The notes under the pieces: generated by a model
Databases searched by the model: none
What the model was told of the DNA's origin: nothing
What the model saw: only the letters and a program-made list of their open reading frames with translations
Shown: piece by piece, positions 6,001 through 41,137 of the stretch
Numbering within the stretch: the first letter of the stretch is position 1
How the letters are laid out: every line of letters starts with the position of its first letter
DNA from: Chiloscyllium plagiosum
Lineage: Eukaryota
Direction of reading: 5' to 3'
Assembly (NCBI RefSeq): GCF_004010195.1
Contig: NC_057756.1
Location: 10,595,165 to 10,645,570 of the forward strand
DNA length: 50,406 nt
Made by a program: the position numbers and the translations under genes

Positions 6001-9000
6001 TGAACACTGTACATTGAACCCTGGGTACTGTGCACTGAACACTGGACACTGTGCACTGAACACTGGGCACTATGCACTGAACACTGTGCACTGATCACTG
6101 GGCACTGTGCATTGAACACTGGGCACTGTGCACTGAACATTGAAGCCTGGGTACTGTGCACTGAACACTGGGCACTGTGCACTGAACACTGGGCACTGTG
6201 CACTGAACATTGAAGCCTGGGTACTGTGCATTGAACACTGGGCACTGTGCACTGCAGATTGAACACAACACTGTACATTGAACACTGGGCACTGTGCACT
6301 GAACATTGAACACAACACTGTGCATTGAACACTTGGCACTGTGCACTGAGCATTGAACACTNNNNNNNNNNNNNNNNNNNNNNNNNNNATTGAACCCTGA
6401 ACATTGAACACAACTTTGTGCATTGAACACTGGGCACTGTGCACTGAACACTGGGCTTGGTGCACTGAACACTGTGAACTGTGCATTGAACACTGATCAC
6501 TGTGCATTGAACACTGGACACTGAACATTGAACACTGGGCACTGTGCATTGAACACTGGGCACTGTGCACTGAACACTGTGAACTGAACATTGAACACTG
6601 ATCACTGTGCATTGAACACTGGGCACTGTGCATTGAACACTGGGCACTGTGCACTGAACACTGGGCATGGTGCACTGAACATTGAACACTGTACACTAAC
6701 ACAAGGCACTGTGCACTGTGTACTGAACATTGAACACAACACTGGGCACTGAGCACTGTGCAAGAATACTGGGCACTGTGCATAAACACTGAATATTGAA
6801 CCCTGAACATTGAACACAACATTGTGCATTGACCACTGGGCACTGTGCATTGAACACTGGGCACTGTGCATTGAACACTGGGCACTGTGCATTGAACCCT
6901 GGGCACTGTGCACTGAACACTGGGCATGGTGCACTGAACACTGTGAACTGAACATTGAACACTGATCACTGTGCATTGAACACTGGGCACTGTGCATTGA
7001 ACACTGGGCACTGAACATTGAACACTGTACACTGTGCATTGAACATGGAACACTGAACACTGTGCACTGAACATGGAACGCTGAACACTGGGCACCGTGC
7101 ATTGAACACTGGGCACTGAACATTGAACACTGTACACTGTGCACTGAACATGGAACACTGAACACTGTGCACTGAACACAGCGCACTGAATATGGAACAC
7201 TGAACGCTGTGCACTGAACATTGAACACTGTACACTAACACAGGACACTGTGCATTGAACACTGATCACTGTGCATTGAACACTGGACACTGAACATTGA
7301 ACACTGGGCACTGTGCATTGAACAGTGGGCACTGTGCACTGAACACTGTGAACTGAACATTGAACACTGATCACTGTGCATTGAACACTGGGCACTGCGC
7401 ATTGAACACTGGGCAGTGTACACTGAACACTGGGCATGGTGCACTGAACATTGAACACTGTACACTAACACTGTGCACTGTGTACTGAACATTGAACACA
7501 ACACTGTGCACTGAGTACTGTGCAAGAATACTGGGCACTGTGCATAAACACTGAATATTGAACCCTGAACATTGAACACTGGGCACTGTGCACTGAACAC
7601 TGGGCATGGTGCACTGAACATTGAACACTGTACACTAACACAGGGCACTGTGTACTGAACATTGAACACTGATCACTGTGCACAGAGCACTGTGCAAGAA
7701 TACTGGGCACTGTGCATAAACACTGAACATTGAACCCTGAACATTGAACACAACTTTGTGCATTGAACACTGGGCACTGTGCATTGAACACTGGGCACTG
7801 TGCATTGAACACTGGGCACTGTGCACTGAACATTGGGCATGGTGCACTGAACACTGTGAACTGAACATTGAACACTGATCACTGTGCATTGAACACTGGG
7901 CACTGAACATTGAACACTGGGCACTGTGCACTGAACACTGGGCATGGTGCACTGAACATTGAACACTGTACACTGTGCACTGAACATGGAACACTGAACA
8001 CTGTGCACTGAACATTGAACACTGTACACTAACACAGGACACTGTGCATTGAACACTGATAACTGTGCATTGAACACTGGGCACTGAGCATTGAACACTG
8101 TGAAATAAACACTGGGCACCGCGCACTGAACACTGGGCACTGAACATTGAACACTGTACACTGTGCACTGAACACTGTGCACTGAACATGGAACACTGAA
8201 CACTGCGCACTGAATATGGAACACTGAACGCTGTGCACTAAACATGGAACACTGAACACTGCGCACTGAACATGGAACACTGAACACTGGGCACTGAGCA
8301 TTGAACACTGTGAAATAAACACAGGGCACTGTGCACTGAACACTGGGAAATGTGCACTTAACATTGAACACTGATCACTGTGCATTGAGCATTGGGTGCT
8401 GTGCACTGAACACTGGGCAATGGGCACTGAGCATTGAACACTGTGAAATAAACACTGGGCACCGTGCACTGAACACTGGGCACTGAACATTGAACACTGT
8501 ACACTGTGCACTGAACATGGAACACTGAACACTGCGCACTGAACATGGAACACTGAACACTGCGCACTGAATATGGAACACTGAACACTGCGCACTGAAT
8601 ATGGAACACTGAACACTGTGCACTGAACATTGAACACTGTACACTAACACAGGACACTGTGCATTGAACACTGATAACTGTGCATTGAACACTGGGCACT
8701 GAGCATTGAACACTGTGAAATAAACACTGGGCACCGTGCACTGAACACTGTGCACTGAACATGGAACACTGAACACTGCGCACTGAATATGGAACACTGA
8801 ACACTGTGCACTAAACATGGAACACTGATCACTGGGCACTGAGCATTGAACACTGTGAAATAAACACTGGGCACCGTGCACTGAACACTGGGCACTGAAC
8901 ATGGAACACTGAACACTGTGCACTGAATATGGAACACTGAACACTGTGCACTGAACATTGAACACTGTACACTAACACAGGACACTGTGCATTGAACACT

Positions 9001-10450
9001 GATCACTGTGCATTGAACACTGGGCACTGAACATGGAACACTGAACACTGTGCACTGAACATGGAACACTGAACACTGCGCACTGAATATGGAACACTGA
9101 ACACTGTGCACTGAACATTGAACACTGTACACTAACACAGGACACTGTGCATTGAACACTGATCACTGTGCATTGAACACTGGACACTGAGCATTGAACA
9201 CTGTGCATTGAATACTGGGCACCGTGCACTGAACACTGGGCACTGTGCACGGAATATTGAACATTGAACATTGTGCATTGAATACTGGACACTGTGCACT
9301 GAACACTGCACTGAACACTGGACATTGTGCACTGTACACTGTGCACTGAACACTGGGCATGGTGCACTGAACATTGAACACTGTACACTAACACAGGGCA
9401 CTGTGCACTGTGTACTGAACATTGAACACAACACTGTGCACTGAGCACTGTGCAAGAATACTGGGCACTGTGCATAAACACTGAGTATTGAACCCTGAAC
9501 ATTGAACACAACATTGTGCATTGAACACTGGGCACTGTGCATTGAACACTGGACACTGTGCACTGAACATTGAACACTGTACACTAACACAGGCACTGTG
9601 CATTGAACACTGTGCACTGTGCATTGAACACTCGACACTGAACATTGAACACTGTGCATTGAATACTGCGTACTGTGCACTGAACACTGCACTGAACACT
9701 AGGCACTGTACATGGAATATTGAACATTGAACATTGTGCATTGAATACTGGACACTGTGCACGGAACACTGGACATTGTGCACTGAACACTGCAGTGAAC
9801 ACTGGACATTGTGCACTGAACAATGGGCATTGTGCACTGAACACTGGACATTGTGCACTGAACACTGGGCACTGTGCACTGAATATTGAACATTGAACAC
9901 TGGGCACTGTGCACTGAACACTGCATTGAACACTGGACATTGTGCACTGAACACTGTGCATTGAATACTGCGCACTGTGCACTGAACACTGGACATTGTG
10001 CACTGAATACTGCACTGAACACTGGGCACTGTGCACTGAACATTGAACATTGTACACTGAACACTGTGCATTGGACATTGAACACTGAACACTATGCATT
10101 GAACACAGGGCACTGTGCATTGACCACTGAAAACTATATATTGAACACTGGGCACTATGCACTGAACATTGAACACAACACTGCATTGAACACTGGGCAC
10201 TATGCACTGAACACTGGTCACTGTGCACTGAACATTGAACACCGTGCACTGTGCTCTGAACATTGAACACAACACTGCATTGAACACTGGGCACTGAACA
10301 TTGAACACTAAACACTGAATACTGAACACTGTGCACTGAACGCTGCACCCTAAACACTGAACACTGCACACTGAACATGGAACACTGAACACTGTGCACT
10401 GAACATGGAACACTGAACACTGCGCACTGAACATGGAACACTGAATACTG
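1..10450. repeat. 7-bp minisatellite/satellite array (CTGAAYA, CAGAAYA, CTGTGCA, CTGGGCA, TTGAACA variants), interrupted by an N gap at 6362-6388
   Basis: Continuous 7-bp periodicity read directly. The long minus-strand ORFs (VQCSVFS-type peptides) are a by-product of the repeat. Confidence 0.97.
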
Positions 10451-11505: not shown

Positions 11506-11674
11506 TCCCTACCTTTTATCTTAACCTGCTGGACAAACTTTCCTCATTCCTGAAGAAGGGCTTATGCCCGAAACGTCAATTCTCCTGTTCCCTGGATGCT
11601 GCCTGACCTGCTGCGCTTTTCCAGCAACACATTTTCAACTCTGATCTCCAGCATCTGCAGACCTCACTTTCTCC
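11506..11674 (+). mobile_element. Penelope-like element terminal-repeat fragment with hammerhead core
   Basis: CCTGAAGAAGGGCTTATGCCCGAAACGTC...GATGCTGCCTGACCTGCTGCGCTTTTCCAGC; same family as copies at 14391, 16799, 17836 and 41014. Boundaries approximate. Confidence 0.8.
11550..11577 (+). ncRNA. Minimal hammerhead ribozyme core (PLE-associated)
   Basis: CUGAAGA-A-GGGC-UUAU-GCCC-GAAA-CG-UC: conserved core, 4-bp helix II, palindromic ACGU in place of helix III. Confidence 0.75.
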
Positions 11675-12498
11675 TGATACATCTCTCAACCCCATTCTCC
11701 CCTGGCTCATCTTTACAATCAAGAACATATCTATCTCCATCCTCAGTGACCTGGCCTCCACAGCCTTCTGTGGCAGTGAATCCCGTAGATTCACCACTCT
11801 CTGGCTGAAGACGTTTCTCCTTCTCTCCATTCTAAAGGGTCTTCCCTTTACTCTCAGGCTGTGCCCTTAGGCCCTCGTCTCTCCCGCCAATGGAAACACC
11901 TTCCCAAAATCCACTGTGTCCAGGCCGTTGGCTATTCTGTAGGCTTCAATTAGATCCCTCACATCCTTCTAAACTCAATGGAGTTTAGACCCAGACTCCT
12001 CAAACGTTCCTAATATGTTAAGCCTATCATTCCTGGGATCATTCCCGTGAACCTTCTCCGGACCCGCTCCGGGATCAGGATATCCATCCTGCGATATGGG
12101 ACCCAAAATTATTTGCAATACTCCAAATGTGGTCTGACCAGAGCCTTATAGAAGTACATCCCTGCTATTATATTCCAGCCCTTGCGAAATGAGTGCCAAC
12201 GTTGTATTTGCCTTTCTGACTACTGACTCAACCTGCAAGTTTACCTTGAGAGAACCCTGGCGTAGAACTCCCAAGTCACTTTGCACTTCAGATTTCTGAA
12301 TTTTTCCTCCATTTAGAATATAGTCCATGGCTGTATTCCTCCGAACCAAGTGCATGACCCCACACTTTACTGCGTTGTACTCCATTACTATTGCAGTATC
12401 AGTGTTACCGGAGGTATATTTTTACATTTGACTTGTATTTCTGTACTATTTATGTGTTTTACGGAGGAGGCGTGGCTTTAGATTAAATTTTCCATCTT

Positions 12499-13168
12499 AG
12501 AGTCATAAGAGACATACAGCATCGAAACAGACCCTTCAGTCCAACCCGTCCATGCCGACCAGATATCCCAACCCAATCTAGTCCCACCTGCCAGCACCCG
12601 GCCCATATCCCTCCAAACCCTTCCTATTCATATACCCATCCAAATGNNNNNNNNNNNNNNNNNNNNNNNNNNNNNNNNNNNNNNNNNNNNNNNNNNNNNN
12701 NNNNNNNNNNNNNNNNNNNNNNNNNNNNNNNNNNNNNNNNNNNNNNNNNNNNNNNNNNNNNNNNNNNNNNNNNNNNNNNNNNNNNNNNNNNNNNNNNNNN
12801 NNNNNNNNNNNNNNNNNNNNNNNNNNNNNNNNNNNNNNNNNNNNNNNNNNNNNNNNNNNNNNNNNNNNNNNNNNNNNNNNNNNNNNNNNNNNNNNNNNNN
12901 NNNNNNNNNNNNNNNNNNNNNNNNNNNNNNNNNNNNNNNNNNNNNNNNNNNNNNNNNNNNTGCACTCCAAGGTCTCTTTGTTCAGCAACACTCCCTAGGA
13001 CCTTACCATTAAGTGTATAAGTCCTGCTAAGATTTGCTTTCCAAAATGCAGCACCTCACATTTATCTGAATTAAACTCCATCTGCCACTTCTCAGCCCAT
13101 TGGCCCATCTGGTCCAGATCCTGTTGTAATCTGAGGTAACCATCTTCGCTGTCCACTACACCTCCAAT
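12499..13168 (-). mobile_element. CR1/HER1 LINE 3' fragment spanning an N gap
   Basis: Minus strand encodes IGGVVDSEDGYLRLQQDLDQMGQWAEKWQMEFNSDKCEVLHF and HLDGYMNRKGLEGYGP, followed by the 3' UTR. Confidence 0.9.
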
Positions 13169-13289
13169 TACATCCTGTGAAATGTTTGGATTTTAACGAG
13201 GTTCTCCATCTTTTGAGGTGACACGTTCAGTGTATTTGGAGGGAGAAAGGGCGAAGGAGAAGTCTGTTGCCCACTGACAGGAGTCACGG

Positions 13290-13426
13290 GGATGGCACGG
13301 TGGCTCAGTGCTTAGCGCCAGGGACCCGGGTTTGATTCCAGCCGCTGGGGCGACTGTCTGTGTGGAGTTTGCACATTTTCCTCGGGCCTGCGTTGGTTTC
13401 CTCCGGGTCTCCAGTTCACTCCAAAC
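13290..13426 (+). mobile_element. HE1 SINE head (tRNA-like region plus V-domain) leading directly into the 52-bp array
   Basis: GGATGGCACGGTGGCTCAGTG...GGGTTTGATTCC...GTCTGTGTGGAGTTTGCACATT...GGTTTCCTCCGGG; small deletion after the A box relative to other copies in the window. Confidence 0.88.
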
Positions 13427-14390
13427 GTTATGGAGGTTACGGTGGATTGGCCATGCTAAATTACCCATAGTGCCCAGGGATGTGCAGGTTACGGTGGATT
13501 AGCCATGCTAAATTACCCATAGTGCCCAGGGATGTGCAGGTTAGGGTGGATTGGCCATGGTAAATTACCCATAGTGCCCAGGGATGTGCAGGTTACAGTG
13601 GATTGGCCATGGTAAATTACCCATAGTGCCCAGGGATGTGCAGGTTAGGGTGGATTGGCTATGGTAAATTCCCCATAGTGCCCAGGGATGTGCAGGTTAG
13701 GGTGGATTGGCCATGCTAAATTACCCATAGTGCCCAGGGATGTGCAGGTTAGGGTGGATTGGCCATGGTAAATTACTCATAGTGCCCAGGGATGTGCAGG
13801 TTAGGGTGGATTGGCCATGCTAAATTACCCATAGTGCCCAGGGATGTGCAGGTTAGGGTGGATTGGCCATGGTAAATTACTCACAGTGCTCAGGGATGTG
13901 CAGGTTAGGGTGGATTGGCTATGGTAAATTACTCATAGTGCCCAGGGATGTGCAGGTTAGGGTGGATTGGCCATGGTAAATTACCCATAGTGCCCAGGGA
14001 TGTGCAGGTTAGGGTGGATTGGCAATGGTAAATTACTCATAGTGCCCAGGGATGTGCAGGTTAGGGTGGATTGGCCATGGTAAATTACTCATAGTGCCCA
14101 GGGATGTGCAGGTTATGGTGGATTGGCCATGCTAAATTACCCATTGTATCCAGGATGTGCCAGTTAGGGTGGATTGACTATGCTAAATGGCCCATAGTGC
14201 CAATGGATGTGCAGGTTAGGGTGGATTGGCCATGCTAAATTACCCATAATGCCAATGGATGTGCTGGTTAGGGTGGATTGGCCATGCAAATTTACCCATA
14301 GTGCACTGGTATGTGCAGGTTAAGGTGGATTGACCATGCAAAATTACCCATAGTGCACCGGTATGTGCGGATTAGGGTGGATTGACCATG

Positions 14391-14484
14391 GCTGGAAATG
14401 TGTTGCTGGAAAAGCGCAGCAGGTCAGGCAGCATCCAGGGAACAGGAGAATCGACGTTTCGGGCATAAGCCCTTCCTCAGGAAA
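14391..14484 (-). mobile_element. 94-bp PLE terminal-repeat insertion in the satellite, 7-bp TSD, hammerhead core at 14453-14480
   Basis: GACCATG duplicated at 14384-14390 and 14485-14491; minus strand reads CTGAGGA-A-GGGC-TTAT-GCCC-GAAA-CG-TC. Confidence 0.88.
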
Positions 14485-16798
14485 GACCATGCTAAATTGA
14501 ACCATAGTGTCCAGAGATTTGCAGGTTCGTGTGGATTGGCCATGCTAAATTACCCGTAGTGCCCAGGGATGTGCCAGTGCGGGTGGATTGCCCATGCTAA
14601 TTTGTCCTGGAGTACCCAGGGGTGTGGAGGTTTGGGTGGATTGGCCTTGCTAAATTACCTGTCGTGCTCAGGATGCACAGTTTTGGGTGTGCAGACCATG
14701 TTAAATTGCCCATAGTGTCCAGGGATGTGCAGGTTACGGTGGATTGGCCATGTTAAATTACCTGTAGTGCCCAGAATGCGCAGTTTACGGTATATTGTCC
14801 ATGCTAAATTACCCATAGTGCCCAGGGACGTGCAGGTTCGGATGTATTGCCCATGCTAATTTGTCCCAGAATGCTGAGCGATGTGCAGCTTCAGGTGCAT
14901 TTGGCCATGCTAAATTGTCCCACAGTGCCTAGGGATGTGGGGGTTAGGGGGAATTGGCCATGCTAAATTAGCCACAATGCCCAAGGATGTGCATGTTAGG
15001 ATGGATTGACCATGCTAAATTTTCCTATAGTACACTGGTATGTGCAGGTTAGCGTGGATTGGCCATGTTAAATTGTTCCATAGTGCCCAGAGCTGTGCAA
15101 GTTAGGTTGGATTGGCTGTGCTTATTTGACCCATAGTGCCTAGGGATGTGGTGGGTAGGTGGGGAATTGGCTGTGCTGAATTAGCCACAATGCCCAGGGA
15201 TGTGCAGGTTAGGGTGGGATTGGCCATGCTAAATTACCCATAGTGCCCAGGAATGTGCAGGTTAATGTGGAATAGCCCTGCAATATTAGCCATACCATCC
15301 AGCGATGTGCATGTTAGGGTGGATTGGCCATGCTAAATTACACATAGTGCCCAGCGATGTGCATGTTAGGGTGGATTGGCCATGCTAAATTACCCATAGT
15401 GCCCAGCGATGTGCATGTTAGGGTGGATTGGCCATGCTAAATTACCCATGATTCCCCGGATGCGCAGGTTACAGTGTATTGGCCATGCTAAATTACCCAT
15501 AATGCCCAGCGATGTGCAGGTTAGTGTGGATTGGCTGTTCTAAATTGTGCCATAGTGCCCAGGGTTGTGGAGGTTAGCGGGGAATTGGCTGTGCTAAGTT
15601 AGCCACAGTCCCACAGTGCTCAGGATGTGCAGGTTCGGGTGAATTTGCCATGCCAATTTAGCCGTAGTGCCTTGGGATGTTCAGGTTAGGGTGGATTGGC
15701 CAAGCAAAATTGTCCCATAATGCACAGGAATATATAGGTTAGGGTGGATTGGCCGTGCTGAATTACACCACAGTGCCCAGGGATGTGCAGGTCAGGGTGG
15801 ATTAGCCATGCTAATTTAACCATTGTGCCCATGGATATGCTGGGTAGGTGAATTGACCATGCTAAATTGTTGCATAGTGTGCAGGGATATGCAGGCTCGG
15901 GTAGATTGGCCATGCTAAATTGTCCCACAGTGCCCAGGGATGTGCATGTTTGGATGGACAGGCCATGCAAAATTGTCCCACAGTGCCCAGGGATGTGCAG
16001 GTTAGGGTTGATCGACGCTGCTAAATTACCCCAGTGCCCAGGGATGTGCACATTCTGATGGATTGGCCATGCTAAATTGTCCCATAGTGCCCAGGGACGA
16101 GCCGTGTTCGGTGGATTGACCATGCTAAATTACCCATACTTTCAAAGGATGTGCAGGTTTGGGTGGATTGGCCATGCTAAGTTACCCGTAGTGCCCAGGG
16201 ATGTGCAGGTTAGGGTGAATTCGCTGTGCTAAATTCCCCATAGTGCTCAGGGATAACTCTGTTAGGGTGGATTGGCCTTCCTAATTTGCCCATTGTCCAT
16301 AGGGATGTGCGTGTTCTGGTGATTTGCCCATGCTAATTTGTCCCTTTGTGACCAGAGGTGTGCAGGTTTGGGTGTTTTGGCCATACTAAAATGTCCCACA
16401 GTGCACAGGGATGTGCAGTTTCGGGTGGATTGGCCATACTAAATTACCCATAGTGCCTAGGGTTGTGCAGGTTTGGGTGGATTGGCCATTCTAAATTACC
16501 CAAAGTGCCACGAGATGTGCAGGTTCTGGTGGATTGACCTTGCTATATTGTCCTGTTGTGTCCAGGGTTGTGCAGCTTTGGGTGGATTTGCCATGCGAAA
16601 TTTCACATAGTGCCCAGGGATGTGCAGGTTATGGTGGATTGGCCTTGCAGAATTACCCATAGTGCCCAGGGATGTGGACGTTGGGGTGGATAGGCCATGC
16701 TCAATTAGGTGCACAGCTCAGGGTTGTGCAGGTTAGGCCATGCCAGATTTTCCCATACTGCCCAGGGATGTGCCGGTTAGGGTGAATTGGCCAAGGTA

Positions 16799-17641
16799 AA
16801 AACAATGACTGCAGATGCTGGAAACCAGATTCTGGATTACAGTGGTGCTGGAAAAACACAGCAGTTCAGGCAGCATCTGAGGAGCAGGAAAATCGACGTT
16901 TCCGGCAAAAGCCCTTCATCAGGAATAAAGGCAGAGAGCCTGAAGGGTGGAGAGAAAAGCTAGAGGATGGTGGGGGTGGGGATAGAGTAGCATAGAGTAC
17001 AATAGGTCAGTGGGGGAGGAGATGAAGGTGATAGGTCAGGGAGGAGAGGGTGNNNNNNNNNNNNNNNNNNNNNNNNNNNNNNNNNNNNNNNNNNNNNNNN
17101 NNNNNNNNNNNNNNNNNNNNNNNNNNNNNNNNNNNNNNNNNNNNNNNNNNNNNNNNNNNNNNNNNNNNNNNNNNNNNNNNNNNNNNNNNNNNNNNNNNNN
17201 NNNNNNNNNNNNNNNNNNNNNNNNNNNNNNNNNNNNNNNNNNNNNNNNNNNNNNNNNNNNNNNNNNNNNNNNNNNNNNNNNNNNNNNNNNNNNNNNNNNN
17301 NNNNNNNNNNNNNNNNNNNNNNNNNNNNNNNNNNNNNNNNNNNNNNNNNNNNNNNNNNNNNNNNNNNNNNNACCAGGTCGTCACGGAGGGAATGGTCTTT
17401 GCGGAAGGCGGAAAGGGGTGGGGAGGGAAATATATTCCTGGTGGTGGGGTCAGGTTGGAGGTGGCGGAAATGTCAGCAGATGATTTGGTTTATGCGAAGG
17501 TTGGTAGGGTGGAAGGTGAGCACCAGGGGCGTTCTGTCCTTGTTACAGTTGGAGGGGTGGGGTCTGAGGGCGGAAGTGCGGGATGTGGACGAGATGTGTT
17601 GGAGGGCATCTTTAACCACGTGGGAAGGGAAATAGCGGTCT
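16799..17641 (-). mobile_element. 5'-truncated Penelope-like element (Neptune-like) inserted in the satellite; N gap inside; hammerhead core at 16895-16922
   Basis: Minus strand of 17372-17640 translates DRYFPSHVVKDAL...KDRTPLVLTFHPTNLRINQIIC*HFRHLQPDPTTRNIFPSPPLSAFRKDHSLRDDLV, resembling the PLE RT thumb/linker; terminal repeat has CTGATGA-A-GGGC-TTTT-GCCG-GAAA-CG-TC. Confidence 0.85.
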
Positions 17642-17835
17642 ATGCCCAGGGATGTGCAGGTTAGGGTGGACTGGCCATGCTAAATTACCCATTTTGTCCC
17701 AGGATGTGGAGGTTCGGGTGGATTAGCCCTGCTAACTTAGCCATCGTGCCCATGGATGTGCCGGTTCGGTGGATTGGCCATGCTAAATTGTCGCATAATG
17801 TGCAGGTTCGGATAGATTGGCTATGTTAAATCGTC

Positions 17836-18158
17836 GCTGAAAATGTGTTGCTGGAAAAGCACAGCAGGTCAGGCAGCATCCAAGGAGCAGGAGAATCGAC
17901 GTTTCGGGCATAAGCCCTTCTTCAGGAATCGGCTGAAGAGCTTCTGTGCAGAGGAGATGACCTGGGGTGTGCAGTGAGAGAGGGACTCACTGAAATCCTT
18001 GTAGTGGGAGGAAGAAAGCTTCTTCAAGGAAGGCATCCTTGCAAGAGGATTCGCAGTAGATTAAAATCTTCGAGGACAAAGTGAGGACTGCAGATGCTGG
18101 AGATCAGAGCTGAAAATGTGTTGCTGGAAAAGCACAGCAGGTCAGGCAGCATCCAAGG
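17836..18158 (-). mobile_element. 323-bp PLE-derived insertion with 50-bp terminal direct repeats, 7-bp TSD, hammerhead core at 17898-17925
   Basis: TSD AATCGTC at 17829-17835 and 18159-18165; identical 50-mers at 17836-17885 and 18109-18158. Confidence 0.88.
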
Positions 18159-21100
18159 AATCGTCCCACAGTGTGTAGGGATGTGCAGGTTAGGGTGAAT
18201 TGGCCATGCTAAATTAGGCATACGGCCCAGGAATGTGCAGGTTAGGGTGAATTGGCCATGCTAAATAACTTACAGTTCCCAGGGATGTGCAGGTTATCGT
18301 AGGGTGGCCGTGCTGAATTACCCATAGTGCCCAGGAATGTGCATTTTAAGGTAGAATGGCTGTGCTAAATTGTCGCATAGTGCCCAGGATGTGCAGGTTA
18401 GGGTGGACTGGCCGTGCTAAATTACACATGGTGTCCAATGATGTGCAGGGTAGGCTGGATTGGCAATGCAAAATTGCCTGTCGTGTCCAGGGATGCGCTG
18501 GTTAGGGTGGATTTGCCATGCTAAATTACCCTTAGTGCCCAGGGATGTACAGGTTCGGGTGGATTGGCCGTGCTAAATTACCCTTAGTGCCCAGAGATGT
18601 ACAGGTTCGGGTGGATTGGCTGTGCTAAATTAGCCATAGTGCTCAGAGATGTGCAGGTTTGGAGTGGATTGGCCAGGCTAAATTACCCATAGTGTCCAAA
18701 GATGTGCAGGGTAGGAGGGGTTATCCATGCTCAATTGTCACATAGTGCCCAGGGATGTGCCGGTAGGGTGGAGTAGCCATTCACAATTACCCGTTACATC
18801 CAGCGATGTGCAGGTTAGGGTGGATTGGCCATGCCAAATTGCTCATAGTGCCCTCGGATGTACAGGTTCAAGTGGATTGGCCATGCTAAATTACCCATAG
18901 TGCTCAGGAATGTGCAGGTTTGGATGGATTGACCATGTTAAACTATCCGTAGTATCCAAGGATGACCCAGTTAGGGTGGATTGGCCATGCTAAATTGCCC
19001 ACAATGCTCAGGGATGTGCATGTTTGGGTGGATTGGGAATGCTCAATTATTGCATAGTGCCCAGGGATGTGTAGGTTAGGGTGAATTGGCCAGGCGAACT
19101 TAGCCACAGTGCCCAAGATTTGCAGGCTTGGGTGGATTAGCCCTGCTAGATTAGCCATCGTCCCCAGGGATGTGCAGGTTAGGGTAGATTGGCCATGCTA
19201 AATTAGCCATAGTACCCAGGGATGTGCAGGTTAGGGTGGATGCTCCATGCTAATTTGACCCATAGTACCCAGGGATGTGCAGGTTAGGGTGGGTTGGCCT
19301 TGCTAAATTACCCAGTGCCCAGGGATTGCAGGATAGGATGGATTAGCCCTGCTAATATAGCCATAGTGCCAAGGGATGTGCCAGTTAGGTTGATTGACCC
19401 TGCTAAATTGTCCCACAGTGCATTGGGATGTGCAAGTTAGGGTGGATTGGCCATGCTAAATTGTCCCATAGTGCCCAGCGCTGTGCAGGTTATCGTAGAT
19501 TGGCCATGCTGAGTTACCCACAGTTCCCAAGGATGTGTAGGTTAGGGTGAACTGGCCATGCTAAAGTTTCCCATAGTGCCCAGTGTTGTACAGCTTAGGG
19601 AGGATTGGTCATTCTAAATTTTCCCATAATGCCCAGGGATGTGCAGGTTGGGTGAATTTGTCATGCTAAATTACCCAGTGCCCAGGGATGAACAGGATAG
19701 GGTGGATTAGCCCTATTAATTTTACCCAGTGCCCAGGGATGTACAGGATAGGGTGGATTAGCCCTATTAATTTTACCATAGTGCCCAGGGATATGCAGGT
19801 TAGGGTAGATTGGCTGTGCTAATGTACCCACAGTGTCTAGGGATGCACAGGTTCAGTGGATTGGCCATGGTAAATTACACAGTGTTCAGGGATATGCAGG
19901 TTAGGGTGGATTGGCCTTGCTAAATTATCCATACTGTGCAGGGATATACAAGATACCATGGATTTACAATACTAAATTGCCCATAGTGCCCAGGGATGTG
20001 CAAGTTAGGGTGGATTGCCGTGCTAAATTGTCCCATAGTGCCCAGCGCTGTGCAGGTTATCGTAGATTGGCCATGCTGAGTTACCCACAGTTCCCAAGGA
20101 TGTGCAGGTTAGGGTGAACTGGCCATGCTAAAGTTTCCCATATTGCCCAGTGGTGTACAGGTTAGGGAGGATTGGTCATTCTACATTTTCCCATAATCCC
20201 CAGGAATGTGCAGGTTGGGTGAATTGGCCATGCTAAATTACCCAGTGCCCAGAGATGTACAGGATAGGGTGGATTAGCCCTATTAATTTTACCATAGTGC
20301 CCATGGATGTGCTGGTTAGGTGGATTGGCCCTGCTAAATTGTCCCAGAGCACGTGGGGATGCACAGGTTTGGTGAATTGGCCATGCCAAATTACCCATAG
20401 TGCTCAGGGATGTGCAGGTTAGGGTGCATTGGCTGTGCTAAATTATCCATAGTGTCCAGGGATGCACAAGATAGTGTAGATTGACAAACTAAATTGTCCA
20501 TAGTGCCCAGGGATGCGCAGGTTAGTGTGAATGTCCCATGCTAATTTGACCCATAGTGCTCAGGGATATGCAGGTTTGGGTGGATTAGCCCTGCTAAATT
20601 ACCCATAGTGCCCAGGGATGTGCAGGTTCAGATGGACTGGCCCTGCTAAATCATCCATAGTGCCCAGGGATGTGCAGGTTCAGATGGACTGGCGATGCTA
20701 AATTGTCTCATAGTGTGTAGAGAATCCAATTTCAGGTGGATTGGCCATGCTTAATTACCCATAGTGCCCAAGGATATTCAGGTTAGGGTAGATTGGCAAT
20801 GCTAAATTAGCCATAGTACCCAGGGATGTGCAGGTTATGGTGGATTGGCCATGCTAAATGACCCATAGTGTCCAGGAATGTGCGTGTTTGGGTGGATTGA
20901 CCATGCTAAATTTTCACACAGTGCCTGGGATGTGCAGGTTAGGTTGAACTGGCCATGTTAAATTTTCCCATAGTGCTCAGAGATGTGCAGGTTTGGAGCG
21001 GATTGGCCGGGCTAAACTACCCATAGTGTCCAAAGATGTGTAGGGTAGGAGGGGTTGGTCATGTTCAATTGTCACATAATACACAGAGATGTGCAGGTAG

Positions 21101-24100
21101 GGTGGAGTGGCCATTCACAATTGCCTGTAACATCCAGCGATGTGCAGGTTAGGGTGGATTGGCTGTGCAAATTTGTCCCATTTGCCCAAGGATGTACAGG
21201 TTAGGGTGGATTGGCCATGCTAAATTACCCATAATGCCCAGGGATGTGCAGGTTAGGGTGGATTGGCCGTGCTAAATTACCCATAGTGCCCAGCGATGTG
21301 CAGGTTAGGGTGGATTGGCCGTGCTAAATTAACCATAGTGCCCAGGAATGTGCAGGTTAGGGTGGATTGGCCGTGCTCTTTTGTCCCATTTGCCCAGGGA
21401 TGTCCAGCTGAGGGTGGATTGGCCATTATAACTTATCCGTGGTGTCGAAGGATGACCCAGTTAGGGTGAATTGGCCATGCTAAATTGCCCATAGTGCTCA
21501 GGGATGTGCATGCTAGGGTAGATTGGACATGCTAAATTGTTCTGTTGTACCCAGGGATGTGCAGGTTAGGGTGTATTGGCCATGCTCAATTGTCGCATCG
21601 TGCCCAGGATGTGCAGGTTAGGGTGGATTGGCCATGCTAAATTACCCATAGTGCTCAGGGATGTGCAGGATAGGGTGGATTAGCCATGCTAAATTACCCA
21701 TAGTGTCCAGGGATGTACAGGATAGGGTGGATTAGCCCTGCTAATATAGCCATAGTGCCAAGGGATGTACCAGTTAGGTGGATTGGCCCTGCTAAATTGT
21801 CCCACAGCACGTAGGGATGTACAGGTTAGGGTGGATTGGCCATGCTCAATTGTCGCATAGTGCCCAGGGATGTGCAGGTTAGGGTGGATTGGCCATGCTC
21901 AATTGTCGCATAGTGCCCAGGGATGTGCAGGTTAGGGTGGATTGGCCGTGCTAAATTGTCCCATAGTGTCTGTGGATGTGCAGGTTAGGGTGGATTAGCC
22001 GTGCTAAATTACCCATAGTGTCCAGGGATGTACAGGATAGGGAGGATTGGCCATGCTAAATTACCCATAGTGTCCAGGGATGTACAGGATAGGGTGGATT
22101 AGCCATGCTAAATTACCCATAGTGTCCAGGGATGTACAGGATAGGGTGGATTAGCCCTGCTAATATAGCCATAGTGCCAAGGGATGTACCAGTTAGGTGG
22201 ATTGGCCCTGCTAAATTGTCCCACAGCACGTAGGGATGTACAGGTTAGGGTGGATTGGCCATGCTCAATTGTCGCATAGTGCCCAGGGATGTGCAGGTTA
22301 GGGTGGATTGGCCAGGTTAACTTAGCCATAGTGACCAGGGATTTGCAGGCTTTGATGGATTAGCCATCGTCCCCAGGGATGTGCAGGTTAAGGTGGAAGC
22401 CCCATGTTAAATTGTCCCATAGTGCGTAGGGAGTCCAGTTTTGGGTGGATTGGCCATGCTTAATTACCCATAGTTCCCAGGGATAACCAGGCTAGGGTGG
22501 ATTGGCCTTGATAAATTTTCAGTGCCCAAGGATGTGTAGATTAGGGTGAACTGGCCATGCTAAAGATTCCCATACTGCCCAGTGATGTGCAAGGTAGGGT
22601 GGATTGGCCATGCTAAATTACCGATCGTGTCCAGGGATGTGTGCAGGTTAGGGTGGATTGGCTGTGCTAAATTATCCAGTGCCCAAGGATGTACAGGATA
22701 GGATGGATTAGCCCTGCTAATATAGCCATAGTGCCAAGGGATGTACCAGTTAGGTGGATTGGCCCTGCTAAATTGTCCCACAGCACATAGGGATGTACAG
22801 GTTAGGGTGGATTGGCCATGCTAAATTACCCATTCTGTCCAGGGATGTGCAGGATAGGGTGGGTTGGCTTTGCTAAATTACCCAGTGCCCAGGGATTACA
22901 GGATAGGATGGATTTACCTTGCTAATATAGCCATAGTGCCCAGGGATGTAAAAGTTAGGTTGATTGACCCTGCTAAATTGTCCCACAGTGCATTGGGATG
23001 TGCAGGTTAGGGTGGATTGGCCGTGCTAAATTGTCCATAGTGCCCAGCACTGTGCAGGTTAGGGTGGATTGGCCATGCTAAATTGTCCCACAGTGCATAG
23101 GGATGTGCAGGTTAGGGTGGATTGGCCATGCTAAATGGTCCCATAGTGTCCAGGGGTGTGCAGGTTATCGTATATTGGCCATGCTGAATTATCCTTAGTG
23201 CCCAGGGATGTACAGGATAGAGTGGATTAGCCCTACTAATTTAGCCAAAGTGCCCATGGATGTGCTGGTTAGGTGGATTGACCCTGCTAAATTGTCCCAC
23301 AGTGCATAGGGATGTGCAGGTTAGGATGGATTGGCCAGGCTAAATTACCCATAGTGCCCAGTGATGTGAATGTTAGTGTGGATTGGCCATGCTAAATTAC
23401 CCATAGTGCCCAGTGATGTACAGGTTAGGGTGGATTTGCAATGCTAAATTACCCTTAGTGCCAAGGAATGTGCAGGTGAGGATGGATTGATTGGCTGTAC
23501 TAAATTACACATAGTGCACAAATATGTGTAGGTTAGCATGGTTTGGCCACACATAATTGCCCATAGTGTCCAGGAATGTGCAGGTTAGGGAGGATTGCCA
23601 TGCTAAATTACCCATAGTGCCCAGGGATTTATATGATAGGGTGGATTGGCCGTGTTAAATTACCCATAGTGCCCAGGGATTTCCATGATAGGGTGGATTG
23701 GCCATGTTAAATTACCAATAGTATCCAGTAATATGCAGGTTTGGATGCTTTGCCCATGTTAATTTGTCCCATAGTGCCCAGGGATGTGCAGATTTGGGTG
23801 GATTGGCCGTGCTAAATTGTCCCACAGTACGCACGGATGAGCAGGTTAGGGTGGATTGGCCAAGCTAAATTACCCATTTCATCCAGAGATTCACAGGTTT
23901 GGGTGGATTGGCCGTGCTAACTTACCCATAGTTCCCAGGGATGTGCAGGTTAATGTAGTTCGGCTATGCTAAATTACCCATATTGCCTAGGGATGTAAAG
24001 ATTCCGGTGGATTCACCATGCCAAATTGTCTCACAATGCCCAGGAATGTGCAGGTTTGGAGTGGATTAGCTGTGCTAAATTACCCATAATGTCGAGGGAT

Positions 24101-27100
24101 GTGCAGGTTAGGATGGATTGGCCATGCTAAATTGCCACCTCGTGCTCAGGGATGTGCAGTGTCGGGTGGATTGGCCGTGCTAAATTACCCATAGTTCACA
24201 GGATGGCCAGGTTATGGTGGATTGGCCCTGCAAAATTACCCATAGTGCCCAAGTATATGCAGGTTGGCGTGGTTTGGCCATACTAAATTGCCCGTTGTGT
24301 CCAGGGATGAGCAAGTTAGAGTGGATGCCCCATGGTAATTTGACACATATTGCCCAGGGATGTGCAAATTACTGTGGACTGGCCATGCAAAATTAGCCAT
24401 CGTGCCCATGGATGTGCATGCAATGGGTAGATTGGCCATGTTAAATTGTTCCTTAGTGTGCAGGGATGTGCTAAATTACCCATACTGTCCAGTGGATGTG
24501 CAGGTTAGGGTGGATTGGCCATAATAAATTGCCAGTTGTGTCCAGGGATGAGCAGAATAAGGTGGATGTGGATGCCCCATGGTAATTTGACTCATAGTGC
24601 CCAGGGATGTGCATGTTTGGGTAGATCGGCCATGTTAAATTGTTCCTTCGTACCCAAAGAGATGTGCAGGTTAGGGTGGATTGGCCACACTAAATTGTCC
24701 CATAGTGCCCAGGGGTATGCAGATTAGGGTGGATTGGCCATACTAAATTGTCCCATACTGCCCTGTTTATGCAGGTTAGGGTGGATTGGCCATACTAACT
24801 TGTCCCATCGTGTCCAAGGAGGGGCAAGGTATGGTGGATTGGCTAGGCTAAATAAGGAATAGTACCCAGGGAAGTGCAGGTTAGGGTGGATTGGCAATGC
24901 TAAGGTACCCACAGTGCCCAGGGATGTGCAGGTTAGGGTGGATTGGCAATGCTAACGTACCCATAGTGCCCAGGAATGAACAGGTTACGATGGATTGGCC
25001 ATGCTAAATTACCCATCGTGCCCATGAATGTGCAGGTTACAATGGATTGGCCGTGCTAAATTATCCCATAGTGCCCAGGAAGTGCAGGTTACAATGGATT
25101 GGCCGTGCTAAATTATCCCATAGTGTGCAGGGATGTGCAGGTTACAATGGATTGGCCATGCTAAATTATCCCATATGCCCAGGAATGTGCAGGTTACCAT
25201 GGATTGGCTGTGCTAAATTGTCCCATAGTGCACAGGGATGTGCAAGTTCTGGTGGATTGGCCATGCTAAATTACCCATAGTGTATAGGAATGTGCAAGTT
25301 ACGATGGATTGGCCGTGCTAAATTGTGCAGATTAGGGTGGATTAACCATGCTAAATTTTTCTATATTGTCCAGGGATGTGCAGGTTAAGATAGATTAGCC
25401 CTGCTAAATTAGCTGTAGTGCCCAGACCTGTGCAGGTTCGGGTGGATTGGCAATGATCAATTACCCATAGTGCCCAGGGATGTGCAGGTTAGGGTGGATT
25501 GGCCATGCTAAATTGTCCCATAGTGCCCAGGGATGTGCAGGCTAGGGTGGATTGACCATGCTAAATTACCCATAGTGCCCAGTGATGTGTAAATTAGGAT
25601 GGATTGGCCATGCTAAATTGTCGGATACTGCCCACAGATTTGCAAGATCTGGTGGATTGTCCATGCTAAATTAGACCTAGTGCTCAGATATGTGGAGATT
25701 AGGGAGGATTGGCCATGTTAAGTTTTTCCACAATTCCCAGGGATGTGCAAGGTACGGTGGATTGGCCATGCTAATTTACCCATTGTGTCCAAGGATGTGC
25801 GGGTTAGGGTGGATTGGCCATGCTAAATTACCCATTGTGTCCAAGGATGTGCAGGTTAGGGTGGTTTGCCCATGTTAATTTGTCCCACAGTTCCCAGGAA
25901 TGTGCAGCTGAGGGTATATCTGCCATGCTAAATTCACCGTAGCACGTAGGGACGTGCAGGTTAGGGTGGATAGGCCATGCTAAATTACCCATAGTGTCCA
26001 GGGATATGTAGGTTAGAGTGGATTGGCCATGCTAAATTACCCATAGTGTCCAGGGATATGCAGGTTAGGGTGGATAGGCCATGCTAAATTACCCATAGTG
26101 CCCAGGGATGTGCATGTTAGGGTGGATTGGCAATGCTAACGTACCCTTGTGCCCAGTGACGTGCAGGTTGCGATGGATTGGCTGTGCTAAATTACCCATA
26201 GTGTACAGGGATGTGCACATTAGGGTGAATTGGCCATACTAAATTGTTGAATAGTGCCCAGCAATGTGTCAATTTAGTGTGGATTAGCCGTGCTAAATAA
26301 CCCATTGTGTCCAGGGATTTGCAAGTTAGGATTGACTGGCCATGCTAAATTACCCATAGGACTCAGGGATGTGTAGGTCAGGTAGATTGGCCACGCTGTA
26401 TTACCCATACTGCCCAGGGATTTGCAAGACCTGGTGGATTGCCCATGCTAAGTTAGACATAGTGCTCAGAAATGTGAAGGTTAGGGAGAATTGGCCATGC
26501 TAAATTTTCCCACAGTTCCCAGGGATGTGCAAGGTATGGTGGATTAGCTGTGCTAAATTACCCAAGGTGCCCAGGTATGTGCTGTTAGGGTGAATTGGCC
26601 ATGCTAAATTATCCCTAGTGCCCAAGGATCTGCAGGTTCGAGTGGATTGGCCATGCTAAATTGCCCATAGTGCCCAGGGATGTGCAGGTTATGGTGGATT
26701 GGCCATGCTAAATTACCCATAGTGCCCAGGGATGTGCAGGTTATGGTGGGTTGGCCATGCTAAATTATGCATTGTTCACAGTATGGACAGGTTATGGTAG
26801 ATTGGCATTGCAAAATTACCCATAGTGCACAAATATGTGCAGGTTAGCATATTAAATTGCCCATAGTGTCCAGGGATGAGCAGATTAGGGTGGATGTCCC
26901 ATGGTAATTTGACCCATACTGCCCCTGGGGTGAATATGTTTGGGTAGATTGGCCATGTTAAATTGTTCCTTCATCCCCAGAGTTGTGCAGATTAGGGTGG
27001 ATTGGCCATATTAAATTGTCCCACAGTGCCCAGGAATGTGCAGGTTAGGGTGGATTCGCCATGCTGCATTTTCCCACAGTGCCTAGGGATGTGCAGGTTA

Positions 27101-29330
27101 GGTTGAATTGGTCATGCTAAATTACACGCAGTACCCAGGGATGTACAGGTTCAAGTGGATTAGCCCTGCTAAATTATTCATTTTGTCCAGGGATGTGCAG
27201 GTTAGGGTGGATTAGCATTGCTATGTTACCCATACCGCCCAGCAATGTGCAGGTTAGAGTGGATTGGCCATGCCAAATTTCCCCTAGTGCCTAGGGATGT
27301 GCAGGTTAGGGTGGATTGGCTGTGCTAAATTACCCATGATGTGCGGGTTACGGTGGGTTGGCCATGCTAAATTACTCACAGTGCCCAGGGATGTACATGT
27401 TAGGGTGGATTGTCCATGCTAATTTGTCCCTTTTGCGCCCAGGGATGTGCAGTTTTGGCAATTTTGGCCATGCTAAATTACCCAGAGATGCGCAGGGTAG
27501 GGTGGATTGGCTATGCTTGTTTGTTCCTTAGTGCCCAGGAATGTGCAGGTTCAGGTGGATTGGCCATGCTAAATTACCCTTAGAACCCAGCGCTGTGCAG
27601 GTTAAGCTGGATTTGCTGTGGTAAATTGTCCCATCATGCCCAGAGATATGAAGGTTAGGATGGATTGGCCGTGCTGATTTAACCATAGTGCCCAGGGATC
27701 TACCGGTTAGGGTGGATTGGCCGTGCTACATTGTTTCATAGTGTCCAGGGACGTGCAGATTAGGGTGGATTGGCCATGCTAATTTGTCCCATTGTGTCCA
27801 ATGATGTGCAAGGTACAGTGGATTGGCCATTCTAAATTACCTATAATGTTCTGGATTGTGTAGCTTGGAGTGGATTGGCCATGCTAAATTGTCCCACAAT
27901 GCCCAGAAATGTGCAGGTTAGGGTGGATTGGTGATGCTAAATTACCTGTAGTGCCCAGGGATGTGCAGGTTTAGTTGGATTGGCCATGCTAAGTCACCAA
28001 TACTGCCCAAGGTGCGCAGGTTACGGTGTATTGGCTATGCAGAATTGTCCCATAGTGCCCAGAGATGTGCAGATTAGGATGGATTGGCCATGCTAAATTG
28101 ATCCATAGTGGTCAAGGATGTGCAGGTCACGGTGTATTGGCCATACTAAATTACCCATAGTGCTCAGTGGTGAGCAGCTTGGGTTGGATTGGCCATTCTA
28201 ATTTGACTCATAGTGCCCAAGGAAGTGCAGGTTAGTGAGGATTGGCCACGCTAAATTGTCCCTTTGTGCTCAGGGATGTGTATTTTAGGGTGAATTATCC
28301 GTGCTAAAATACGATAGTTTCTCGGGATGTGTAGGTGAGGGGGCATTGACCATGCTAAATTATCCATTGTGCCTAGCGATATCCGTATTAGGGTGGATGG
28401 ATGTTGCTAAATTGCCGATTATCAACAATGATGTGCAGCTTAGGGTGGATGCTCCATGCTAATTTGTCCCTTTGGTCCCAGGGATGTGCAGGTTAGGGTG
28501 TCTTGGCCATGCGAAACTGTCTCTCCGTGCCCAGGGATGCGCAGGTTAGGGTAGATTGGCTCTACCAAATTACCCATTGTGGCCAGGTGTGTGCAGGTTA
28601 GGGTGGATTGGCCATGGTAAATTATCCATACTGTGCAGGGATGTGCACATTAGGGTGGATTCGCCATGCTAAATTGTCCCATACTGTTAAGGGATGTGCA
28701 GGTGTGGGTGGATTGGACGTATTAAATTACCCATAGTGCCTGGGATGTGCAGGTGGGGATGGATTGGCCATGCTAAATTGTCGCATAGTGCCCAGGGTTA
28801 TGCAGTTCGTGTAGATTGGCCATACTAAATTGCCCATAGTGCCCAGGGATGTGCAGGTTAGCGTGGGTTGCCCATGCTAATTTGTTCCATAGTGCCCCAG
28901 AATGTGCAGTTGTAGGTGTATCAGCTGTGCCAAATTCTCCATAGTGCCCAGGGATGTGCGGGTTAGGGTTGCATACTTTTCCCACAGTGCCCAGGGATGT
29001 GCCCAGGTTTGGGTAGATTGGCCATGCTAAATAATCCATAGTGCCCAGCAATATCCCTGTTCGGGTGGATGGGCATTGCTAAATTGGCGATTAGCAACAG
29101 TGATGTGCAGCTTAGCACTCTATGCTATTTTGTCCCTTTGTTCCCAGGGATGTGCAAGTTAGGATGGATTGCCCATGCGAAATTGGGCCAGAGTGCCCAT
29201 GGATATGCAGGTTAGGATAGATTAGCTAAACTGCCACATAGTGCCCAGGGACGTGCAGTTTCGGGTAGATTGGCCATGCCAAATTACCCATAGTTCTCTA
29301 GGATGTGCAGGTTAATTGGGTTAGCCATGG

Positions 29331-29448
29331 GAAATGTGGGGTTACAGGGTTAGGGTTGGAGAGGCTGAGTCTGTGCGGGCTCTCTTCGGAGTCTCGGCGT
29401 GGATCCGATCGGCCAAGTAGCCTCCTCCCCACACTGTTGGCAGTCTGT
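29331..29448 (+). mobile_element. Diverged HE1 SINE 3' tail closing the 52-bp array
   Basis: GGGAAATGTGGGGTTACAGGG...TGAGTCTGTGCGGGCTCTCTTCGGAG..TCGGCGTGGA...GGCCAAGTAGCCTCCTCCCCACACTGT aligns by eye with HE1 tails such as 11378-11451. Confidence 0.8.
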
Positions 29449-29537
29449 GCTGGTAAAAGACCGAGACCTTTAGAAGCAGTCAGGCAATGTGCAGGTCTCC
29501 GTCCGGGAGAAAAGGCCTTTTGCTGTTGGGTGAGTGC

Positions 29538-30468
29538 AGAACTAGAGGGCGTAGGTTTAAGCTGAGAGGGGAAAGATTTTAAAAAGGGACCCCAGGGGTA
29601 ACTTTTTCACGCAGAGGGTGGTATGGGTATGGAATGAGCTGCCAGAGGAAGTGGTGGAGGCTGGTACAATGACAACATTTAAAAGGCATCTGGATGGGTA
29701 TATGTGGGATAAGATTTGCTAACCCACGATAGGCCCACAACAGCAAATTGGCCAAATTGTACCAGGACACCCAGAATTCCCGAGCAGCTCACGAACTGGG
29801 TCAGACGGTACGCAGGCAATGGAATACGCTTTCAAGCTCCCATGGACATGACAAGAGATCTCAAAGCCCTCAGGGCAGTTTCACAACCCAGCAATACCCT
29901 AAAGCCACACAAAGAGCAGGACAGACAGACAGACAGGCACCACAGGACAATGGAAGCACCTCACCACTTCAGGAAAGACTTTAACACCGACCTGGGAAGA
30001 TGAATGGAACTGTGATACTGTCAGGATGTTGCATTGTGTGAAGGAACAGATCATTCATCCAATAAACTGTTTTCCAATTAGCACCCTTGCAACTAAAATA
30101 CTCCATTTCCAGAAACATTGTAGTTTCCCATTTCTTAATCAGTGTCATTGTGCAGCATTACTATCATCCTCAGCTCTGGGAGGAGAAATCAAATTCTCTG
30201 TGCAGACTGTCAGTTCTGTGTCAGCTGGTCGGTTTTCTCCTCCAGCGATATCGCTTGCAATAAACTGTTTGTCAATTTCACTTCGAGCTGTGTTTTGTGA
30301 TCTCTAACCTACTGGGCAAATTTCTCCGACAGTGTATGAATAGGAAGGGTGGAGCGGGATATGGGCCAAGTGCTGGGAAATGGGACCAGATTAGTTTGGG
30401 ATATCTGGTCGGCATGGACGAGTTGGAGCAAAGAGGCTGTTTGCTTGCTGTACATCTCTGACTCTGAG
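29538..30468 (+). mobile_element. CR1/HER1 3' end, split by a 629-bp insertion at 29703-30331
   Basis: AGAACTAGAGGG...CATCTGGATGGGTATA stops at 29702 and resumes as TGAATAGGAAGGG at 30337. Confidence 0.88.
29703..30331 (+). mobile_element. Probable solo LTR (629 bp)
   Basis: TG...CA ends, imperfect terminal inverted repeat (TGTGGGATAAGATTTGC / GCAAATTTCTCCGACA), 5-bp TSD GTATA/GTGTA, AATAAA at 30061 and about 30259. Confidence 0.72.
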
Positions 30469-34185: not shown

Positions 34186-34650
34186 TTTCCTGTCGTTTTT
34201 GTACCGCACTGTGACAACCGCAATCTTCTGATTTTTTTTTTTAAAATATGAGACTTATTTATGTTTGGTTTTTGTTTTGGTTTGGTGCTGACTGCTTCTC
34301 GCGGAAGCATGTCTCCAATTCCTCTTTTGAGACAGGACAAGTGGAAGAGGTCGGCGCCCCCATGATCTCGCGAGCTGGTTGGCGCCGGTTAGTTTTGTAG
34401 AGCTGCTGTGTCGCTCTATTTCCTGTCGTTTTTGTACTGCACTGTGACAACCGCAATCTTCTGATTTTTTTTTTAAAATATGAGACTTATTTATGTTTGG
34501 TTTTTGTTTTGTTTTGGTGCTGACTGCTTCTCGCGGAAACATGTCTCCAATTCCTCTTTTGAGACAGGACAAGTGGAAGAGGTCGGCGCCCCCATGATCT
34601 CGCGAGCTGGTTGGCGCCGGTTAGTTTTGTAGAGCTGCTGTGTCGCTCTA
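34186..34650. repeat. Near-perfect tandem duplication of about 233 bp inside the R2 remnant
   Basis: 34186-34418 is repeated at 34419-34650 with few differences. Confidence 0.95.
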
Positions 34651-41013: not shown

Positions 41014-41137
41014 GCTGAGGAAGGGCTTATGCCCGAAACGTCAATTCTCCTGTTCCTTGGATGCTGCCTGACCTGCTGCGCCTTTCCAGCAACACATTTC
41101 CAGCTCTGATCTCCAGCATCTGCAGTTCTCGCTTTCT
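41014..41137 (+). mobile_element. 124-bp PLE terminal-repeat insertion, 17-bp TSD, hammerhead core at 41015-41042
   Basis: CCGCAAAGAATAAATGG at 40997-41013 and 41138-41154; core CTGAGGA-A-GGGC-TTAT-GCCC-GAAA-CG-TC. Confidence 0.9.

Follow-up and report, generated by a model that had tools for sequence, protein, structure and literature searches.

Satellite arrays can grow from the inside of retroposons, and the question raised by the locus described here is how a short interspersed element (SINE) whose ordinary copies hold a single inner unit came to hold hundreds of them, and whether one copy was enough. The window, i.e. the whole stretch of DNA that we analysed, comprises 50,406 nucleotides of the forward strand of Chiloscyllium plagiosum (GCF_004010195.1, NC_057756.1:10,595,165-10,645,570), and all positions below are counted from its first letter. 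At 13290-29448 it contains a real, large SINE-derived satellite array. We read the array as the head and tail of an HE1-type V-SINE enclosing 280 inner units, which, on balance, more probably than otherwise grew in place from one copy.

A tandem array between a SINE head and a SINE tail

Tandem Repeats Finder placed an array with a period of 52 at 13434-29314. Combined with a wrap-around alignment and with a unit profile built from the window's own units, the array extends over 13427-29334 (plus strand) with 280 matches of a unit of 52 bp, many of them of 53 bp, arranged in blocks of 19, 45, 4 and 212. This agrees with the roughly 280 copies of a 52-bp unit counted in an earlier sequence-only reading of this DNA. 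The wrap-around alignment returned 308 segments, 271 of which matched at least 38 of the 52 bases; the mean identity was 86%. Unit sequence fills about 14.6 kb of the 15.9 kb, since three insertions (14389-14486, 16795-17642 and 17835-18162) interrupt the array. The run of units had been described as unbroken, which is correct for the head, as it passes straight into the first unit (in the profile search the head match stops 5 bp upstream of the first unit match), but not for the array behind it.

The head (13290-13426, plus strand), with a tRNA-like part and a central domain, was delimited by alignment to ordinary copies: it is 71-85% identical to the copy at 38494 and to other copies of the window, relative to which it carries two deletions, of 16 bp and 8 bp. 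The tail (29334-29448, plus strand) belongs to an older, long-tailed HE1-type subfamily, with which it aligns end to end (genome search, 29 loci aligned). When 29325-29450 was aligned to the tail of the 38494 copy the score was 88, while shuffled sequences had a mean of 43 and a maximum of 64, and none out of 2000 reached 88. The HE1-like tail proposed before at about 29331-29448 is thus borne out. The last, partial unit of the array (29302-29334, plus strand) is the SINE's own second partial repeat and joins this tail. Nine other head-plus-tail copies in the window have one unit match each, as had been claimed, and they represent a dispersed, high-copy element of about 300-350 bp; two head-unit motifs had 1143 and 431 exact matches in the genome.

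We take the element to be HE1, a V-SINE, on the basis of the known features of that family and of the sequence-only reading rather than of an alignment to the published consensus; the original description reportedly noted an inner tandem-repeat region. Passages of two papers describe HE1 as a V-SINE of sharks and rays with HER1 as its partner long interspersed element, or LINE (PMC3747384, PMC4824008). A tail shared with a LINE was found here as well: in the 38494 copy, about 50 bases of the tail match the 3' end of a LINE fragment (12480-12646; score 77), whereas the array's own, more decayed tail aligns to it poorly (score 33). This fragment is part of a LINE 3' end that lies directly upstream of the array head, on the minus strand at 12480-13175, and that is presumably CR1-like, judging from its sequence motifs; its last 50 bases match the tails of younger SINE copies.

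A built-in direct repeat and the growth of the array

Copies of the older subfamily contain one 51-bp unit, then the first 33 bases of that unit once more in near-perfect form, and then the tail, which makes a 33-bp direct repeat at a spacing of 51 bp. The array repeats this layout, but with many full units before the partial one, which comes last. Mispairing between the unit and its partial copy would therefore duplicate exactly this unit. The sequence-only reading had located the seed in the copy at 38494, with its repeated GATGTG.AGG. The repeat there is shorter, and the idea of a built-in seed finds better ground in the 33-bp repeat of the older subfamily.

Within the array, pairwise divergence between units was 23% at every distance, flat from lag 1 to lag 200, and divergence plotted over these lags revealed no higher-order repeat. 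The 13 units next to the head (13427-14102, plus strand) form a young block that differs from its own consensus by 3.4%, compared to 13.8% for 253 older units, and the two consensus sequences are one base apart. The flat 23% together with the 13.8% of the old units points to an early burst followed by decay, and not to concerted evolution. Two later duplications, both on the plus strand, were found: one of six units, with copies starting at 19427 and 19995 (19427-20305; 4.9% apart), and a recent one of four units, with copies starting at 21660 and 22079 (21660-22314; 0.5% apart), which holds the longest exact repeat of the array (230 bp).

In the history that we propose, one old SINE copy would have grown in place through repeated unequal recombination near a chromosome end, with an early and fast expansion from one almost unchanged unit, as the star-like divergence of 13.8% from the consensus suggests. 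A long decay without homogenisation would have followed, then the three retroelement insertions into the array, then the later multi-unit duplications, and recently a renewal of the 13 head-adjacent units, which would have re-expanded locally or been converted from another array. The position of the array and the analogy with other systems make unequal recombination close to a chromosome end the likely mechanism.

Arrays of the same kind across the genome

An exact 46-base unit-to-unit junction had 1184 matches in the genome, three of them in this window, while a reversed control had none. We sampled 40 stretches round the first 100 listed junction matches, 28 stretches round long arrays and two stretches beside the window, and found 59 arrays of at least eight units, including this one. 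Both ends were visible in 38 arrays: 26 had a head and a tail, three only a head, four only a tail, and five neither (one extra array, with too few alignable units for this comparison of ends, is counted elsewhere as the 27th head-plus-tail case). With 280 units the present array is the longest in the sample, which covers a small part of the genome so that longer ones may exist; the next have 161 units (a whole scaffold), 158 units (with head and tail) and 148 units. A genome search for further long HE1 arrays had been suggested together with the claim that one SINE expanded in place. It turned up head-units-tail arrays as a common form, and thereby supports the general process, although the locus is not a unique case but belongs to a large class, of which it is the longest member seen.

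Growth after insertion is suggested by the age of the parts, because the units of the arrays diverge on average by 5% from the array consensus and the heads and tails by 11% from theirs (non-CpG sites), i.e. the units are younger. In addition, each long array consists almost purely of one unit type, with or without an extra G (see below), as expected from one founder per locus. The longer arrays are the more diverged ones (rho 0.72 across 27 arrays).

Spread by segmental duplication was considered and rejected, as no common flank was detected among 15 arrays with complete ends. Arrays could also have been long already on arrival, if a multi-unit master SINE had retrotransposed in the manner of SVA, which carries its variable number tandem repeat (VNTR) along when it moves. 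One consensus unit is common to arrays at many loci, 0-3 changes apart, and the flanks are unrelated, both of which such a route would produce. However, the multi-unit copies do not form one subfamily: tails of the 27 head-plus-tail arrays were of the old type in 15 cases and of the young type in 12, and, measured over head and tail, the distance among array hosts (0.215) is no smaller than their distance to ordinary young copies (0.201). Moreover, the units are younger than their own heads and tails, and a 16-kb transcript of RNA polymerase III (Pol III) would hit many T4 runs. We consider this route very unlikely, and the evidence in the shark favours growth after insertion. Two tail types, unrelated flanks and the lack of a closer kinship among hosts favour many separate births in place.

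Chromosomal distribution

Between the array and the end of its 10.7-Mb scaffold, C47, there are 87.7 kb; the 10 kb flanking the window on each side contained no telomeric repeat. Array clusters, defined within one megabase on C2-C36, lay in the outer 15% of scaffold ends in 12 out of 18 cases, compared to 36 out of 95 ordinary copies on C1-C2 (p=0.005). This subtelomeric preference is to be read with the placement test leaving out the listed matches on C37-C43, with arrays and ordinary copies coming from different scaffolds, and with scaffold ends that are not necessarily true telomeres. As the first 100 listed junction matches extend into C43, the other 1084 of the 1184 fall on the smallest chromosomes and on unplaced scaffolds. 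Copies with at least three units were present beside arrays (8/49) and absent elsewhere (0/29; p=0.023). An unselected sample comprised 40 stretches on C43-C48 and C51, with 46 elements, 8 of which had at least three full units, and 20 stretches from the middle of C1-C6, with 8 elements and no array. According to parts of a published account, the small chromosomes and the chromosome ends of sharks are GC-rich and contain more tandem repeats (PMC10620051).

A dense group of extra-G copies and arrays was noticed at C8:92-104 Mb, near the end of a large chromosome, where 26 of the first 100 listed matches to an HE1 head-unit motif are located. This region resembles a small chromosome in its behaviour, and is possibly one that was fused or misplaced.

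One copy or two, and the integrity of the assembly

Several observations weigh against growth from a single copy as the history of this locus. The head has changed at 9 of 107 non-CpG sites and the tail at 24 of 103 (p=0.004). The consensus of the young block is almost the ancestral unit, yet among the 253 old units only 4 lie no more than one change from it. Target-site duplications of at least 8 bases occurred at chance level (null 1.5%), with 2 cases among 131 ordinary copies and one among 15 arrays, and since this is so even in ordinary copies they cannot tie the two ends of the array together. The contrast between small and large chromosomes was non-significant in the unselected sample (8/46 against 0/8, p=0.34). 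Finally, the array includes a run of 319 N where other copies of the inserted element imply 531-551 bases.

Some of these observations suit another history, in which the array is a chimera. The head and the first 13 units would derive from a younger upstream copy or small array, or else from a donor at an ectopic site, and would have been linked to an older array with its tail; recombination between units would have removed the younger tail and the older head, so that growth took place at the locus and not within a single copy. A young head with young units, next to old units with an old tail, is what such a join, or a conversion of the 5' end, predicts, and the data show it: head and tail diverge by 8% and 23% at non-CpG sites, and the two groups of units by 3.4% and 13.8% with nearly equal consensus. 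The head and young block also resemble a typical younger array (mean 11% for the head and 5% for the units), SINE copies are dense (10 head-plus-tail elements in 50 kb), and the head, the tail or both are absent in 12 of the 38 arrays. On the other hand, a mild homogeneity on the head side is general (20 of 26 arrays, p=0.03), thus polarity alone can yield a young 5' block. A gap between head and tail as extreme as this one was found in 4 of 131 ordinary single copies, as well as in 3 of 27 arrays. The heads are nearly devoid of subfamily-diagnostic sites, so that a direct mismatch of head against tail did not emerge. The origin of head and tail from two copies had been named before as an alternative, and the age gaps at the ends and between the blocks of units do speak for it; we regard the chimera, including its recombination between units, as a doubtful though serious candidate and retain growth from one copy as the somewhat more probable history.

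A further explanation is that the length of the array, or the join between head and tail, arose during assembly or scaffolding over the N run. The assembly consists of 101,977 pieces with many N runs, the present run is shorter than the other copies imply, and the array is without spanning read-level support. But with a pairwise divergence of 23% between units and no exact repeat above 230 bp, the length of the array does not come from copies that were multiplied. A collapse is conceivable in the uniform 5' block. In addition, at three other loci a single element contains the sequences from both sides of the N run in colinear order. For the spectrum of unit variants on the left side, the correlation is 0.59 with the right side and lower, at 0.25-0.41, with 14 other long arrays, even if the right side correlates up to 0.56 with other arrays.

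We also compared contigs of four sequencing runs over 29270-29560. A contig of X1, possibly the source sample, matches 29270-29330 exactly; one of X2 covers 29327-29560 with 11 differences; and contigs of X9, from another organism, cover 29376-29560. X10 gave no cover in 29370-29519, and among the listed contig pieces of the four runs none bridges the last unit and the tail by 31 bases on both sides. The tail is thus joined to its 3' flank in a contig from another study, and this junction is common to a second organism. An artefact of assembly is, all considered, highly improbable.

The extra G and the shared consensus unit

The array unit differs from the older 51-bp unit by one extra G, which creates the hexamer TTAGGG; 103 of these hexamers remain on the plus strand of the array. 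Counted as matches and not as loci, head-unit junctions without the extra G outnumber those with it (1143 and 431), whereas for unit-unit junctions the numbers are 21 without and 1184 with it. In the unselected stretches the extra G was present in 8 of 8 array blocks and in 8 of 29 classifiable single copies (p=0.0003), a p-value that is too small because the 8 blocks lie in 6 stretches and may represent 6 arrays. For copies beside known arrays, the extra-G contrast was 5/20 against 1/16 (p=0.20). Single copies with the extra G are themselves enriched near ends (27 out of 38), and the extra G raises the G-quadruplex score slightly, from 1.04 to 1.16. As a sufficient cause of expansion the extra G was rejected, since only 1 of 24 extra-G copies on C1-C6 has at least three units. 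Long arrays without it exist too, with 98, 54 and 53 units.

The consensus units of the unselected arrays were 1-3 of 52 bases away from that of the present array, while single copies were about 13% different. A founder test in selected arrays counted 10 private changes where 73 were expected, a result biased by the arrays having been found through their likeness to this consensus, so that the unselected set alone counts. Direct exchange of units between this array and others was rejected: among 137 units with at least four private changes one had a twin elsewhere, which is within the shuffled range. For all sampled arrays, 57 of 727 such units had a twin in another array (0-8 in shuffles), and nearly all of these pairs involve unplaced scaffolds, which are possibly alleles or pieces of one array. 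Long 51-bp arrays without the extra G, at C16:23.31 Mb and C11:0.98 Mb, have several derived units in common, with six twins in one pair on these two chromosomes, and form a possible case of inter-array exchange. Either near-ancestral units with the extra G expand preferentially, or arrays exchange sequence.

Potential for transcription by Pol III

Both boxes of a tRNA-derived promoter can be located in the head, an A-box-like motif at 13301-13311 and a B-box-like motif at 13329-13339 (plus strand), each with one change relative to an intact copy. It had been proposed that Pol III might read from this head into the array until the first T4 run. The motifs do remain recognisable, as an active promoter that transcribes the array into satellite RNA would need, but the 16-bp deletion brings the start-to-start distance of the boxes from 44 in the intact copy to 28, the A box has lost its last G, and the B box has lost a C present in all tRNA genes. 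The first T4 run is located within the head, at 13376-13379 (plus strand), and so precedes the array instead of ending a transcript inside it. In Rfam, tRNA was the best though weak match (E=1.6) of the intact copy at 38498-38570; the array head had no tRNA-like match, and the search gave nothing useful across 13200-18300.

Read-through into the array is unlikely given the box distance, the changed boxes and the T4 run in the head, a judgement that draws on what is known of type 2 promoters and terminators, and an active promoter at this head is close to excluded. The array is most likely non-functional, not transcribed by Pol III, and past retrotransposing.

Insertions and neighbouring features

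The three insertions that split the array lie on the minus strand and are presumably Penelope-like, a label that we base on sequence motifs. The first (14389-14486) is an end-piece of a dispersed repeat, with about 95% identity to other copies in the window and a 7-bp terminal duplication. The second (16795-17642) is a longer piece of the same kind of repeat, with a hammerhead-like motif and the 319 N; two short open pieces of it had no match in a Pfam search. The third (17835-18162) is made up of two end-pieces of this repeat; it too contains a hammerhead-like motif and is bounded by a 7-bp duplication. The array insertions thus carry two hammerhead-like motifs, both on the minus strand, out of five across the window. 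End-pieces of this kind with a minimal hammerhead-like motif are frequent, and were also found at 11544-11675 and 41015-41146.

Elsewhere in the window, a second satellite occupies 1-10450, with a 7-bp unit and multiples of 14 and 21 bp, and stops at a run of 500 N; its motif also occurs 128 times in the 10 kb preceding the window. A 232-bp tandem duplication at 34186-34650 (98%) may be recent or an assembly effect. Finally, 49301-49900 codes for C2H2 zinc fingers (Pfam zf-H2C2_2, E=1e-29); the first repeats there are 75 bp long and 97% alike, lack part of the usual 84-bp finger and are followed by frame shifts downstream.

Relation to known systems and meaning

The growth of satellites from the inside of SINEs is already known in frogs and squamates, and the closest case is the V-SINE minisatellite of frogs. 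As far as described in the main text of Bredeson et al. (2024, PMC10794172), Xenopus tropicalis and other frogs have a 52-bp minisatellite derived from the 3' part of SINE/tRNA-V and expanded only in subtelomeric copies. Both systems involve a V-SINE and a unit of 52 bp, and in both ordinary copies occur everywhere, expanded ones lie towards the ends, and unequal recombination is proposed. The hosts differ, and the likeness is one of description. That main text mentions neither a one-base variant marking expanded copies nor retained heads and tails.

In squamates, the parts of Vassetzky et al. (2023, PMC10702118) on which we draw describe sSat1-3, subtelomeric arrays of an inner SINE segment with up to 320, about 950 and more than 1200 units. 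The shark array resembles them in its tandem inner segment, its attached SINE ends and its subtelomeric place: it has 280 middle units derived from part of a SINE and shorter than the whole element, where sSat is defined by at least four such units, and its terminal monomers extend to the SINE termini at both ends. Ordinary HE1 copies, for comparison, have one unit plus a partial one. The squamate arrays mostly keep one SINE end, both ends being a minor variant, whereas the shark arrays keep both in the majority of cases (26/38). The reported rise of homogeneity with length (94% at 320 units) is not seen in the shark, where the longer arrays are more diverged (rho 0.72), and the built-in direct repeat that may serve as a seed is a feature of the shark SINE, unlike sSat in that account. 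SVA and human VNTRs, as presented in sections of PMC8327921, share with the shark arrays a retroposon with an inner variable tandem repeat, a subtelomeric bias and an occasional polarity of expansion, while the tandem SINEs of bivalves, in the part of PMC11481361 that concerns them, are multimers of whole elements. Our literature search, whose coverage mostly excluded subscription journals, returned no report of HE1-derived arrays in sharks.

The shark case extends SINE-to-satellite growth to cartilaginous fish and adds a candidate sequence determinant. Its new details are the TTAGGG-making variant, present in all unselected arrays, and the single consensus unit found across hosts. The birth of satellites from transposons is usually inferred after the ends have been lost, whereas here many loci retain a head and a tail; with 1 to 280 units in one genome and known founder subfamilies, place, age and unit sequence become testable as causes. 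Tentatively, and with considerable doubt, we suggest that sharks and frogs have independently made use of the inner repeat of V-SINEs as a satellite seed, that its growth in Chiloscyllium is gated by the TTAGGG-making G plus chromosomal place, and that arrays in hosts of differing age and subfamily converge on a near-ancestral unit rather than take over the mutations of the host copy. If so, a telomere-like motif or exchange among chromosome ends would keep renewing hundreds of SINE-borne arrays, and the graded series from 1 to 280 units would allow the birth of a satellite to be studied directly.

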